Below the pieces are notes generated by a model. It ran no database searches. It had not been told where the DNA came from and saw only the letters and a program-made list of their open reading frames with translations. The position numbers and the translations under genes were made by a program. From Escherichia coli (lineage in GTDB: Bacteria > Pseudomonadota > Gammaproteobacteria > Enterobacterales > Enterobacteriaceae), in the NCBI RefSeq assembly GCF_030013595.1, contig NZ_CP122768.1: a stretch of DNA of 64,000 nt; one strand, 5' to 3'. Position 1 is the first letter of the stretch; every line of letters starts with the position of its first letter. Positions 3,245 to 55,109 of the stretch are shown here, in pieces.

Positions 3245-3523
3245 ATGGCAAAAGTCCTTAACACATACGAACAAGCGGATTTTGAGCGTTTGGCGGCGTT
3301 CTACCCATACCGTAATGAACATGGGCTACCGGTACTTGAAGAAAGCCTGGAGGATTATGCGAAACGCACAAATCAAAGCATTCTCGCTGTAAGAAGGCAG
3401 GCTGATAGATCGGTAATTCCCGTTACTCAAGAAGGAAGAAACACAAAACGCAAAGTAAATCTCTTCGCAATTTTCCTGAAAACCATCAGAAACGCAGAGA
3501 AATACGTGCAAATGACAAAATAA
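3245..3523 (+). CDS. First early-operon gene, putative Cox/Apl-like regulator
   Basis: 92-aa ORF divergent from the repressor, positionally equivalent to P2 cox; no clear sequence match recalled. Confidence 0.45.
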   Translation: MAKVLNTYEQADFERLAAFYPYRNEHGLPVLEESLEDYAKRTNQSILAVRRQADRSVIPVTQEGRNTKRKVNLFAIFLKTIRNAEKYVQMTK

Positions 3524-47637: not shown

Positions 47638-48566
47638 ATCAGCTTTCCTTATACGGATTAATTTTATTGTGCAGTGTGTTGAACGACGCCCACACCACGT
47701 CGTTATACAATTCAATAACTGGCTCAATTATTTTCACGATAAACCAGACCAGTAATAGCGGGGATATCGGTATCATCAACACGATAAATATAATGAGAAA
47801 CAAAAATTCTGTCGCTCTACTTTTTCTCGGATATTCTTTTCTGAATAATGTAGTCATTTCTTACCGCCCTTTCGGGCGGCCTCCTGACATTAATCATTGT
47901 GATAACTCATAGTTTCATTTGCAGCATCAACTGGATCAACATCCCACCAGCAATAATTTTGGTCGAGTCCTTCAGGTGTCCACGGCTCTAATTCATTTTT
48001 TACCGCATTCTCGTCACCAGTAATTTTAAAAATCTGCTCAGAAAATTTCCTCACCCACTCGTTATATTTTTCCGCATTAATGGTTTTCTGTGTATTTAAC
48101 ATAGATATGCCTCCAGTTAAGGATTTGATTTTATTTACAGTGCTAAATTTAATTATTCAGTTCTGGATTTTGTCGCCCTGCGTATCCGCGCTTTCGCGTT
48201 ACGCTCAATCTGAATTAACTTTTCTATATTTTTCCGTCTTTCCTGTTCCTCCTGGCGCAATAGCCTTACATCATCTGCCAGTCTGGTTTCTCTTTTCGCC
48301 ACAGAGAGCATCCAGTCAAACGGCTCCACAACTGCACCGCAGATTTTACAGCGGACCTGACGCTCTTTTTCGTCAACCCGAACAGAGGCGTGATGACAAT
48401 ATGCTCTTTCCGATGGCTCATAAAGAAAATTAACCTGATTACGTGGGTCATCCTCTTTTACCGGAAATAAAACGATATTGCTTAACTCATCTTCTGGTTT
48501 TATTTCCATGCTCTTCTCCTTTGATGTGAATGCCAGCGGTAATTGAAGCCTGATAGCTAATTTCAT

Positions 48567-51310: not shown

Positions 51311-51736
51311 TCAATGTACTGCCACAGCATTTCCTGCCGGGCCACCACGGTTCATCTGATTGAAACCGGCGATTGCCACTGCGACAAAATCATCAGCGTC
51401 TCTCACCAGTCGCTCCCGCGTCTCCACCAGCTCCCGAAAATAAGCTGAACTGTGGCTGCGCATTCTGGCCACCAGCAAAGGTGGCATTGCCTTTTCGATC
51501 GCTGGTAACAACGTCTGAATTTTTTCAACTGCATCAGGGGTGTCTTTCTCTACCCAGCGGAAAATTTTCTGGGTATTGCGAGCCAGGGCTTCCGGATGGC
51601 TATCGTCATACAGTTCAGGAAACGTCATACCCAACTCAAAATAAGCCTGGGTTATTCCAGCTGCTGGAACTTTTTCGCCATCAGGACGCGCCCAGGCATT
51701 CATCGCCATGCGGATGTGTTCATGCTTGATTTTCAT
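51311..51736 (-). CDS. ydaT: YdaT-like protein (Rac prophage family)
   Basis: Begins MKIKHEHI as I recall E. coli YdaT; 141 aa. Confidence 0.55.
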   Translation of the reverse strand: MKIKHEHIRMAMNAWARPDGEKVPAAGITQAYFELGMTFPELYDDSHPEALARNTQKIFRWVEKDTPDAVEKIQTLLPAIEKAMPPLLVARMRSHSSAYFRELVETRERLVRDADDFVAVAIAGFNQMNRGGPAGNAVAVH

Positions 51737-51758
51737 GAATCATTTGCCTCTTGATGTT

Positions 51759-52055
51759 TCAGGTATGATCAAATGAGGATTTGTTACTGTCATTTAGTTG
51801 CTTCACTGACATATTCTGCGAACAACATGCCGAACGTCGTAAATATGACCAGTCAATATCAGGACGAAGTTCTTCGCACAGAACCTCACCTCTTGTTGCA
51901 CGTTCAATTGCTGGACATCTCTCGGCAGGCAATTGACGTACCCCTTTGATCCATTGATTTACGCTTGGAGGTGATACACCTAAAAGCCTAGCCATTGCTG
52001 ATTGCCCACCGACAACAGCACAAGCTTGCTTGAATGAATAGTTCTCTTTTTTCAT
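51759..52055 (-). CDS. ydaS: Cro-like HTH protein, YdaS-like
   Basis: MKKENYSFKQACAVVGGQSAMARLLGVSPPSVNQW matches my memory of Rac YdaS; divergent from the repressor. Confidence 0.6.
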   Translation of the reverse strand: MKKENYSFKQACAVVGGQSAMARLLGVSPPSVNQWIKGVRQLPAERCPAIERATRGEVLCEELRPDIDWSYLRRSACCSQNMSVKQLNDSNKSSFDHT

Positions 52056-52084
52056 CGAATGAACTCCAAAAACACACAGAAATA

Positions 52085-52151
52085 TTAGGCGACGCCTAAC
52101 ACAAATGTCAATAGGCTGTGCCTAATGCGATAAAGGTAGGAATTGCCTAAT
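52085..52151. promoter_or_regulatory. Operator region: three TTAGGC-n3-GCCTAA-type palindromes between the divergent ydaS-like and repressor genes
   Basis: TTAGGCGACGCCTAA (perfect), ATAGGCTGTGCCTAAT, TAGGAATTGCCTAAT. Confidence 0.6.
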
Positions 52152-52178
52152 ACAATGAGCATAGGAGAATATTAAGCA

Positions 52179-52655
52179 ATGCTTAGTGGTAAAGACTTAG
52201 GCCGAGCGATAGAGCAGGCCATTAACAAAAAAATCGCATCGGGATCCGTCAAATCAAAGGCGGAGGTCGCACGCCACTTCAAAGTCCAACCACCATCAAT
52301 TTATGACTGGATTAAGAAAGGCTCTATAAGTAAAGATAAACTTCCAGAATTATGGCGTTTCTTTTCTGATGTTGTTGGTCCAGAGCATTGGGGGCTTAAC
52401 GAATACCCCATACCAACCCCCACCAATTCAGATACAAAAAGTGAACTTTTAGATATAAACAACCTTTATCAAGCAGCCTCTGATGAAATAAGAGCGATTG
52501 TAGCTTTCCTGTTATCTGGAAATGCTACAGAACCAGATTGGGTTGACCACGATGTTCGCGCCTACATAGCAGCGATGGAAATGAAAGTGGGTAAGTATCT
52601 GAAAGCTCTAGAATCTGAACGGAAAAGCCAGAACATCACAAAAACTGGAACTTAA
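52179..52655 (+). CDS. Prophage repressor (XRE-type HTH, RacR-like position)
   Basis: 158 aa; N-terminal helix-turn-helix; flanked on both sides by the same palindromic operator motif. Confidence 0.6.
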   Translation: MLSGKDLGRAIEQAINKKIASGSVKSKAEVARHFKVQPPSIYDWIKKGSISKDKLPELWRFFSDVVGPEHWGLNEYPIPTPTNSDTKSELLDINNLYQAASDEIRAIVAFLLSGNATEPDWVDHDVRAYIAAMEMKVGKYLKALESERKSQNITKTGT

Positions 52656-52970
52656 ACTTATATGGTCTGACGGAAAACTCCTGGATTCCGTTATTTAACC
52701 CCCCATCACTTTCTGCTGTCGCCATCACCTATTAGGTTACGATCAAAACATTAGGCATAGCCTATTGACAATCAATTAGGCATTACCTATAGTTCCAGCA
52801 TACCACCCACCCCGCCCCACAGAACGCAGGGCAATACTTCGAGTTACCAGGCAGTGGTCAGGGGTTAAGTAGCCAGCCCGAGGCGTAAGAACATGACGGC
52901 AGGGTTCAACTTTAACTATGCAGCAGGTTTTTGTTCCGCCACCCCGGCGTTAAGGGGAAATGAGGTCAGC

Positions 52971-53126
52971 ATGGATACTATCGATCTTGGCAACAGCGAA
53001 TCTCTGGTATGTGGCGTGTTCCCCAACCAGGACGGCACGTTCACTGCGATGACGTATACCAAAAGCAAAACGTTTAAAACCGAATCTGGCGCGCGTCGCT
53101 GGCTGGAAAGAAACTCAGGTGAGTGA
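52971..53126 (+). CDS. Small Rac-type protein (YdaF-like)
   Basis: MDTIDLGNSESLV... 51 aa with AAGGGGAAATGAGG ribosome-binding site; assignment from memory. Confidence 0.4.
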   Translation: MDTIDLGNSESLVCGVFPNQDGTFTAMTYTKSKTFKTESGARRWLERNSGE

Positions 53127-55109
53127 TATGGATTTCGACACAATCATGGAAAAGGCTTACGAAGAATACTTCGAAGGCCTTGCCGAAGGCGAAGAAGCTC
53201 TCAGCTTCAGTGAGTTTAAACAGGCGCTTTCCAGCTCGGCAAAATCTAACGGCTGATAAGCGAAGCAGCACCGCGAGGAATCAGTATGCAGAAACGAGAA
53301 CCCGTCATCATCGCGCCAGACTATACCGATGATGAACTTTATGAGTGGATGCGCCAGAAAATTAATGCAGCGCAGGATCTGAAATGGGCCAATGAAGCCA
53401 GGGCTAAGCAGGCTGAAAATCTGTCCGCTCTGGAGCAGGATATCACCAGGCTGGAAAAAGCAGCGGCATTAAGCATTGCCAGAATGATTTCATACCCGCG
53501 TTAATAGCTAACCAACGAAGCTAAGGTTGGTAATTAAGGAGTTCTCCACGGGTCAGGTGGAGTGCGTGCGCCGGACACGGGTGAGCATCCGGTACGTTCT
53601 TTAAAAATCTGGATAGTCCCAACTTATTTAAACGGTTAATTATCTTGAGTTCATCCAGAACTTATTATTGCAAGCGAGGCAAAAAGTACGAAAATGAGCA
53701 TCAAAGCGCATTATTTCCATTGGCTGAAGTACAGATATTACCTTTTTTCCAAAACATTGTGGGCAAAGATACACAGTTATCTCAGTATCGCCTATAAATT
53801 GCTTCTTGGAATATACAAGGGTTCCAGAATCAAGCTTGTTAAGCTTGTAACCTTCCGCCTGTCGCTGAAAATCTTCTGTCTCTGCAATTTTTGCTTTGAG
53901 ATGCATTATCTCTTCATCACGAAAGCGGATCGCATCGCAAAGAGAGAAGCATTCCGCCTGAAGCGTGATTAGTTTGTTCTGAAGTTCAATAGTTGCGGCT
54001 TTAACTTCTGCATCCGTTTTTGCGTCATTAATAACCTTAGCGAGACCAGCTGTCTCCTTTATCGCAGCCATAGCCGCTGACAGTTCTGCTATCACGTTGA
54101 GTACTCTTCTCGTTGTTGGGGATATCCGGATTATACAAATTTCTTGTTGTTGGGGAATAACAGGAACCACCTCGCCTGACGTGGTTAAAAGCAGGCACAC
54201 AACGCGAAAGCGTACGGCGAGGTAGCTGGTTCATAGATAGCCTGTCGTTAAATTTTCGTCGACCGTGCACTTCCGGTTGTGGCAATCCGCGAAATGGCGC
54301 GGCGGTAAGTATGGCTGGGTTATCCTTACCCCATTAGTGGCACCGGGTTGTCAGGTTGACCATACGCTTAAGTGACAACCCCGCTGCAACAACCCATGTT
54401 GATTACCTTTTGGCGGGTATCCGTTTTTTGTTTTCCCTTGTGATACCCGCCCTTTTTAAAGTGAATTTTGTGATGCGGTGAATGCGGCTCAGCGCACGCG
54501 GAACAGTTAAAAAGGCCAGTTGACTTCCGTATTGGTTCTTATGGGTGGGTTCTCTGTATCCGGCGTTAATTATTAACTGGTTAACGTCACCTGGAGGCAC
54601 CAGGCACCGCATCACAAAATTCATTGTTGAGGATGCGATAATGGAAACGTTATTACCAAACGTCAATACGTCTGAAGGTTGTTTTGAAATTGGTGTCAGA
54701 ATCAGTAACCCTGTATTTACTGAAGATGCCATTAATAAGAGAAAACACGAACGGGAGCTATTAAATCAAATATGCATTGTTTCAATGCTGGCCCGTTTAC
54801 GCCTGATGCAAAAAGGACGATGACAATGAATACAGTATTTGCACTCGTTCTGACGGTTTTTCTTAATACAGGCGAGCCAGTCGATCTTGTTATTGGTATA
54901 CATGACTCAATGAAAGAATGCATGGCTGCCGCAGCGGAACAGAAAATTCCCGGCAACTGTTATCCGGTTGATAAAGTTATTCGCATGGACAATAACGAAA
55001 TCCCGGCAGGACTTAAAACAGCACCGTAATTAATATCCGGTTTCATTTTTATATGCCAGCAATGGCAGGGATTTGTTCACCCTTAAATCTGTAATGAGGT
55101 TAAAACAAA

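Follow-up and report, generated by a model that had tools for sequence, protein, structure and literature searches.

[quoted passage not shown] For Rac, Krishnamurthi et al. (2017) described three GCCTAA/TTAGGC repeats between racR and ydaS, and this intergenic DNA gave three EMSA complexes with RacR as well as ChIP-qPCR enrichment (PMC5700373). In a paper published in Nucleic Acids Research in 2022, the K-12 ydaS promoter (TTGACA / TAATAT) was mapped by primer extension and mutagenesis together with three racR promoters, one of them leaderless, while DNase I footprints on the intergenic region led to the operator sequence (T/A)TAGGC-n3-GCCTA(T/A) (PMC9638921). According to the same paper YdaS does not repress racR, and the parallel to lambda is therefore incomplete. 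A study from 2023 counted four inverted repeats and found RacR to be an octamer in size-exclusion chromatography, which its authors attributed to the four intergenic operators alone (PMC11014345). Silencing of RacR in K-12 raised the expression of kilR, ydaC and ralA more than 70-fold and that of ydaF, ydaG, ydaE and racC about 40-fold (PMC6765115). This derepression of the left operon could be indirect, e.g., via YdaS, YdaT or read-through.

The RacR type of immunity resembles the lambda CI/Cro switch in that the repressor gene and a cro gene are divergently transcribed, that palindromic operators approximately 23-26 bp apart cover PR and the repressor promoter, and that a second operator set covers PL past the repressor gene, where cargo genes can be situated between the repressor and OL, as rexAB in lambda. 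A leaderless repressor mRNA and an octameric repressor are common to both systems. The RacR operators, however, comprise 15 bp instead of 17 bp and have another sequence. Moreover, lambda possesses OR1-3 and OL1-3, whereas the RacR type shows four OR sites and an OL composed of two sites plus a half-site, and the distance between OR and OL is about 0.65 kb here as against 2.4 kb in lambda.

CP-933P, which encodes PaaR2, YdaS and YdaT, has the same gene order, homologues of YdaS and YdaT, and an octameric repressor. Its PL promoter and the operators OL1-3 have been identified, repression by both regulators was demonstrated and expression is bistable (PMC8630535). CP-933P differs in the repressor family, in the operator consensus (18-bp palindromes of the GTTTAGTAA type) and by the toxin-antitoxin pair paaA2-parE2 downstream of its repressor. 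Qin (DicA/DicC) has the same left operon, ydfA, ydfB, ydfC and dicB, and the same layout of a repressor followed by PL (with dicBp), a short non-cleavable repressor, and operators on both sides of the repressor gene. Its operators, however, are DicA-type sequences similar to TGTTAG...CTAACA, and it contains not a single copy of TTAGGC-n3-GCCTAA. Lambda, Qin and CP-933P are precedents for an operator pair downstream of the repressor gene.

The window that we analyzed (the whole stretch of 64,000 nucleotides) harbors a prophage that adjoins yccA and still possesses replication, exonuclease and integrase genes. Its repressor gene racR (52179-52655, plus strand) encodes a protein of 158 aa with an N-terminal HTH domain and a C-terminal oligomerisation domain, which is 100% identical to E. 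coli K-12 RacR over all 158 residues and thus its ortholog; RefSeq likewise assigns the name racR in a 99.8% identical locus. Since the published work used this identical protein, the upstream half of the system is experimentally established. Next to racR and divergent from it lie the cro-like gene ydaS (51759-52055, minus strand; 98 aa; Pfam YdaS_toxin, 2.6e-31, and P22_Cro, 3.4e-9) and ydaT (51311-51736, minus strand), coding for a cII-analogous regulator of 141 aa (Pfam YdaT_toxin; annotated as YdaT family in the 99.8% identical ETEC1706 locus). The start codon of ydaT is overlapped by the YdaT-box ATGATTCATGAAAATCAA (51726-51743, minus strand), the same site that has been footprinted in K-12 Rac (PMC11879457). 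On the other side of racR, an early-left operon begins with a ydfA-like gene (52971-53126, plus strand; Pfam DUF1391), followed by ydfB (53128-53256, plus strand) and ydfC (53286-53504, plus strand), both named after the annotation of the 99.8% identical locus, and by dicB and the exonuclease and integrase genes. Neither DicF nor any other Rfam family was detected at the gathering threshold between positions 48000 and 64000. In a megablast search of complete E. coli genomes with a 2-kb query, 4395 of 5426 genomes contained at least a part of the query and 529 contained most of it; the top matches were annotated as racR, ydaS and YdaT family protein, then DUF1391, ydfB and ydfC. Taken together, we assign the region to the immunity switch of a Rac-type lambdoid prophage with both OR and OL operators, at a probability of roughly 0.85.

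The only Pfam match of RacR was a weak one to HTH_17 (residues 28-61). Peptidase_S24 (PF00717) gave no Pfam match, and RacR thus does not belong to the S24 repressors of the LexA/CI type, which sets it apart from the autocleaving lambda repressor. The absence of this domain is real, because relatives exist in which the N-terminal domain of RacR is fused to PF00717. Induction therefore cannot proceed by RecA-stimulated self-cleavage.

Compared with K-12 Rac, the RacR protein, the motif and positions of the operators, the hexamers of PR and the YdaT-box are the same, as is the leaderless racR start inside an operator. All five sites occur in K-12 as well, the downstream pair being base-for-base identical (NC_000913, 1,419,629-1,419,668, between racR and ydaG). 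The two prophages differ in bases between the operators, in one base of OR3 and in the genes behind PL, which are ydaG, ydaF, sieB and kilR in Rac but the Qin-like set of a ydfA-like gene, ydfB, ydfC and dicB here.

The whole 64-kb window was searched for TTAGGC-n3-GCCTAA, allowing up to two mismatches unless stated otherwise. Five copies were obtained, all of them inside two clusters (52085-52150 and 52751-52790). The upstream cluster between the divergent genes ydaS and racR consists of three copies starting at 52085, 52111 and 52136, with zero, one and two mismatches, and this confirms the three palindromes reported for this interval in the preliminary description. OR1 (TTAGGCGACGCCTAA, 52085-52099) is the perfect palindrome TTAGGC-GAC-GCCTAA and overlaps the -10 region of the PR-like promoter of ydaS and ydaT (52082-52111, minus strand), for which the promoter scan scored 10 of 12 (TTGACA at 52111..52106, a spacer of 18 nt, TAATAT at 52087..52082). 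It lies in the ydaST promoter region, where the K-12 footprint at the lowest dose of RacR was located (PMC9638921). OR2 (ATAGGCTGTGCCTAA, ATAGGC-TGT-GCCTAA, 52111-52125, one mismatch) abuts the -35 region of this promoter, and OR3 (GTAGGAATTGCCTAA, GTAGGA-ATT-GCCTAA, 52136-52150, two mismatches) follows. The earlier count of three was correct for these sites but overlooked a fourth operator, OR4 (TTAAGCAATGCTTAG, TTAAGC-AAT-GCTTAG, 52172-52186, three mismatches), whose spacer contains the ATG of racR and which corresponds to the published 'operator 3' with the same property (PMC9638921). OR3 and OR4 lie over the promoter region of racR. A further half-site, TTAGGC at 52197-52202 (plus strand), resides within the racR coding sequence and has also been noted before (PMC5700373, PMC9638921). 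Hence, OR1 to OR4, one of which spans the racR start codon, cover the promoters of both divergent genes, repressor and cro.

Two copies lie past racR. OL2 (TTAGGCATAGCCTAT, TTAGGC-ATA-GCCTAT, 52751-52765) has one mismatch and ends on the T with which the -35 region of a PL-like promoter begins (52765-52793, plus strand; TTGACA, 17 nt, TATAGT; 11 of 12 in the promoter scan). OL1 (TTAGGCATTACCTAT, TTAGGC-ATT-ACCTAT, 52776-52790) has two mismatches and reaches from the spacer three bases into the -10 region. This second cluster of the same motif is thus positioned over an early promoter beyond the repressor gene, and PL, directed into the early-left operon, occupies the place of OL/PL in lambda. 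When each is read the way it is transcribed, the units of PL and PR follow a common plan: operator, TTGACA, approximately 10 nt, operator, -10 region. Two to three sites had been suggested on this side of racR. Two were found, but the third is a half-site only: the candidate palindrome TTAGGTTACGATCAA (52732-52746) shows four mismatches, and among 31 downstream variants its left half TTAGGT (OL3, 52732-52737, plus strand) is conserved, while its right half (52741-52746) varies freely. OL3 was therefore rejected as a full operator. The corrected tally is four operators upstream and two plus one half-site downstream. The centre-to-centre spacing amounts to 26, 25 and 36 bp in OR and to 25 bp in OL, resembling the operator spacings of 23-24 bp in lambda.

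To judge the palindromes against chance, 2000 first-order Markov simulations of the window were evaluated at up to two mismatches. The simulated sequences contained 1.97 copies on average and five or more in 93 of 2000 cases, so that the raw number of five is not extreme. With up to three mismatches, 30 matches occurred in the 64 kb where 21.9 were expected, which is also not unusual. A pair of sites at most 30 bp apart, however, arose in 3 of 2000 simulations and two such pairs in none, as against three pairs observed. Seven of the ten exact TTAGGC hexamers of the window fall within 52085-52781. The significance of the palindromes thus results from their clustering and not from their number.

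The conservation of the operators was studied by phylogenetic footprinting of 80 IMG/VR loci whose RacR is 92-100% identical, comprising 37 distinct upstream and 31 distinct downstream sequences. Seven of 66 half-site columns were variable, compared to 89 of 202 other intergenic columns (Fisher p = 2.8e-7); variation was concentrated in the n3 spacers, where eight of 16 columns were variable, and between the operators. The half-sites of OR1 showed no variation across the 37 upstream variants, and the promoter hexamers, those of PL included, were almost invariant. We also compared loci of more distant RacR homologues (56-62% identical to the query) from Yersinia, Klebsiella, Morganella, Pectobacterium, Providencia and Mixta and two further loci in which the RacR N-domain is fused to an S24 peptidase. 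Apart from the operators, the promoters and, in some loci, the PL leader, the DNA around these divergent loci exhibited no evident similarity. Operators at positions -67 and -7 from the ATG were present in all eight divergent loci, and the OR4 position at -7 was kept in nine of nine. The -42 operator was recognized with up to two mismatches in seven of the eight; the Providencia copy (ATAGGAATTGCCTAC) has three. Four OR operators are characteristic of the E. coli type, and three of the other genera. A downstream pair exactly 25 bp apart in the layout O-TTGAC...-O-TA... was found in each of the eight divergent loci, representing about seven genera. In one divergent Salmonella locus the OR operators were present, but 8 kb of sequence revealed no downstream pair; the left arm of this locus has apparently been exchanged.

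The distance of this pair from the repressor stop codon ranged from 61 to 1401 bp. It was 61 to 157 bp in five divergent loci, 764-903 bp in the S24-fusion loci, where the pair is located behind two small genes, and 1401 bp in Klebsiella, where it is located behind a gene with an HSDR_N domain. The pair therefore follows the promoter and not the end of the repressor gene. This bears on the possibility that the downstream palindromes act as hairpins in the racR transcript, i.e., as a terminator or stability element, instead of as protein-binding DNA. Any inverted repeat can be drawn as a hairpin, and our terminator scan did flag 52752-52764 as a short stem-loop, though on the minus strand. On the plus strand, however, neither palindrome is followed by a T-run, the stems comprise just 6 bp with a loop of 3 nt, and the half-sites are invariant, without covariation. 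In addition, the same 15-mer upstream of racR is footprinted by RacR, and the remote pairs of Klebsiella and of the S24 fusions always lie around -35 and -10 regions. Because of the missing T-run, the invariant half-sites and the movement of the pair with the promoter, the terminator-hairpin interpretation was rejected; hairpins in the racR transcript are a very improbable explanation.

We also considered that recombination in a decaying prophage could have left behind the downstream pair as a copy of the PR operator-promoter unit without function. The PL unit mirrors that of PR, 37 of 52 aligned positions being identical, and prophages of the Rac type are often defective. Yet the half-sites and promoter hexamers have been conserved while the spacers drifted, and the spacing of exactly 25 bp was retained in eight loci with otherwise no evident intergenic similarity. 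Since a relic would not survive such divergence, this origin is disfavored and, to our judgment, extremely improbable.

As a negative control, we searched immunity regions that encode other repressors, 36 kb in total (Qin DicA, HK022, AH07, SfV, ST64B, mEp237, SPN3UB and ZF40), and no copy of the motif was detected at up to two mismatches. Residues 1-73 of RacR are near-invariant across the genera, whereas its C-terminal half is either divergent or replaced, and the motif tracks the N-domain across about seven genera including the S24 fusions. As these relatives combine the same DNA-binding domain and operators with an S24 domain, the two halves of the repressor are exchangeable modules. Phage matches to the window share the flanks but differ across approximately 51713-52958, a span that brackets ydaS, racR and OL as one cassette, so that the operators are inherited together with the repressor specificity. 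Homology of the window with Qin resumes at about 52925, approximately 45 bp upstream of ydfA; judging from these comparisons, modules have been swapped naturally in Qin, where the ydfABC-dicB operon stands behind DicA-type operators. Three comparative results show that the downstream sites are functionally tied to the repressor and support the OR/OL-like arrangement proposed in the preliminary description: the half-sites are conserved, the sites accompany the DNA-binding domain of RacR in different genera, and other types of immunity region lack them.

The downstream sites may, however, be used chiefly by YdaS, or by YdaS and RacR alike, for a late shut-off of the left operon, with RacR having a minor effect on PL. 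In CP-933P, PaaR2 and YdaS each repress PL about 100-fold and share their footprints (PMC8630535), and a gene of the YdaS/P22_Cro family was present at every RacR-type locus examined. On the other hand, the motif tracks the N-terminal domain of RacR, which was kept in the S24 fusions, and depletion of RacR alone derepresses the left operon 40-70-fold or more. We regard a predominant role of YdaS as unlikely; it is a complement to the main explanation more than a true alternative. By analogy with the CP-933P switch, YdaS as the Cro-like protein probably shares these operators.

According to the favored explanation of RacR acting at both OR and OL, RacR dimers would recognize the 15-bp sequence (T/A)TAGGC-n3-GCCTA(T/A) via the N-terminal helix-turn-helix domain. 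As OR1 to OR4 cover the PR-like ydaS-ydaT promoter and the racR promoters, RacR silences the cro-like and cII-like genes and regulates its own synthesis, in agreement with the published work. OL2 and OL1, 25 bp apart, together with the half-site bracket the -35 region and cover the -10 region of PL. From this arrangement we infer that RacR binds at OL and represses PL; bound there, it should exclude the RNA polymerase and silence the early-left operon, which is ydfABC-dicB-exonuclease-integrase in this prophage and ydaG-ydaF-kilR-racC-recET in K-12 Rac. Since RacR is an octamer in solution, OR and OL, separated by about 650 bp, may be bridged, although a repression loop between OR and OL like that of lambda is speculative. 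We see even chances for the combined proposal that the downstream pair is an unrecognised second operator of the essential repressor RacR, that RacR directly represses the kilR/recET-side operon and that the octamer loops OL to OR over this distance instead of just occupying the four intergenic operators.

The early-left leader (52794-52970, plus strand) is long and contains a C-rich tract at 52803-52820. Its predicted structure was no more stable than that of shuffled sequences (z = +1.33). Independently of the operators, we observed an element of about 72 nt with which the PL transcript begins. Four RacR-type loci possess it, as do lambdoid phages whose repressors are unrelated (among them SfV, ST64B, mEp237, SPN3UB, ZF40 and AH07). 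It consists of the invariant core AGGCAGGACGCCCACGAAGUAGCC and two stems, with compensatory changes in 10 of 16 predicted pairs. The element matched 51 phage records, none of which annotates it, though a few have a hypothetical-protein CDS over it; it had no Rfam match and no blastn similarity to the putL region of HK022. The leader of the window gave just a weak partial match (52867-52903, 6.6 bits) to the covariance model of this motif, which was built from other phages. The element may be a cis-acting antitermination RNA and is separate from the operator finding.

The Rac immunity system and its upstream operators are already known. A literature search with the exact sequences of the downstream operators returned nothing, and none of the papers that could be searched yielded an assay of binding to the downstream pair, EcoCyc and RegulonDB lying outside this search. 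The RacR papers searched say nothing of downstream sites, of looping or of a PL promoter, and contain no transcription start site of PL; in PMC11014345 neither 'loop' nor 'downstream' occurs as a word. The downstream pair thus seems to be undescribed for RacR, yet it was to be expected by analogy with lambda.

Beyond annotation, the importance of the finding is small. The prophage is identified as carrying Rac immunity, which predicts that its host is immune to other RacR-type phages and tells which genes should be silent in the lysogen, including the cell-division inhibitor gene dicB. In the K-12 literature RacR is treated as acting only at the racR-ydaS intergenic region. The conserved PL/OL unit would directly explain why kilR, ydaFG and racC are derepressed 40-70-fold or more upon depletion of RacR, and it would also provide a reason for the RacR octamer.

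The control region OR upstream of racR differs in operator number between host groups. In the Rac-type prophages of E. coli, four operators are located at -95, -69, -44 and -7 from the ATG (window 52085-52186), whereas in all other genera examined (loci L084-L092 compared) only three were identified, at -67, -42 and -7. The E. coli lineage possesses one additional operator unit, about 26 bp long.

In some relatives, the N-terminal DNA-binding domain of RacR was found to be joined to a LexA-like Peptidase_S24 C-terminal domain. This holds for the repressors P0105 (locus L087, 2001-2708) and P0103 (locus L092, 4001-4708), whose DNA-binding domains are about 70-82% identical to that of RacR. Both loci retained TTAGGC-n3-GCCTAA operators at OR as well as at OL. 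The fusions are a natural exchange of domains between two repressor designs, one non-cleavable and the other SOS-cleavable.

Some RacR-type loci also contain cargo genes inserted in the interval that separates the repressor gene from the OL/PL unit. The insertion of Klebsiella (L086, 2637-3791) harbors an HSDR_N-domain gene and that of Salmonella (L093, 8653-11455) DUF6694 and a PLD-nuclease-like gene; the loci of the two S24 fusions carry insertions as well (L087, 2722-3307; L092, 4708-5440). In lambda, the matching position is occupied by rexAB. In the lysogen, these genes would be transcribed together with the repressor, and they look like defence-type cargo.

Directly 3' of the racR stop codon, a stretch (window 52656-52698) beginning with TGGTCTGACGGAA is kept in most divergent RacR-type loci; the DNA around it is not conserved among them. 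In the window it contains a 6-bp hairpin (52670-52675 pairing with 52686-52691) followed by TATTT, and could be a weak terminator or a further binding site. The adjacent poly-C run upstream of OL (52698-52705) differs in length among variants. Within OL, the spacer between OL2 and OL1, which includes the -35 hexamer (52763-52775), is itself palindromic (ATTGA-CAA-TCAAT) and similar to half of the YdaT-box (AATCAA), the site spanning the ydaT start codon. This palindrome is probably due to chance, because the corresponding spacers of the other genera are not palindromic.

The beginning of the PL leader carries a C-rich, G-poor tract, CCACCCACCCCGCCCC (window 52803-52820), which looks like a Rho-utilisation site. 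In K-12, a Rho-dependent terminator (trac) is located within racR (PMC4150792). Lambdoid phages of several different repressor types share a conserved RNA-like element of approximately 72 nt, located at the 5' terminus of the transcript from PL. Copies reside at L085 2667-2738, L086 3927-3998, L089 4635-4706, L091 4623-4694 and, in L097-L102, around 1486-1578; Yersinia (L085) harbors a diverged second copy (3348-3406, 40 bits), and the window only a partial, weak match (52867-52903). The element comprises two stems and the invariant core AGGCAGGACGCCCACGAAGUAGCC, with compensatory changes at 10 of the 16 predicted pairs. It was annotated in none of the 51 matched phage records, in a few of which a hypothetical-protein CDS overlies it. 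Neither a match in Rfam 15 nor, by blastn, similarity to HK022 putL was detected. We regard the element as a candidate antitermination RNA of the put or nut kind.

In the RacR-type prophage of Mixta (L091), Rfam matches to C4 antisense RNA, its a1/b1 targets and isrK were obtained at 1166-1364. They adjoin an ANT/pRha antirepressor gene, with the RacR-type repressor about 2.7 kb away, which suggests a P1/P7-style antirepressor control module. A module of this type may be a route to inactivating the non-cleavable RacR-type repressor.
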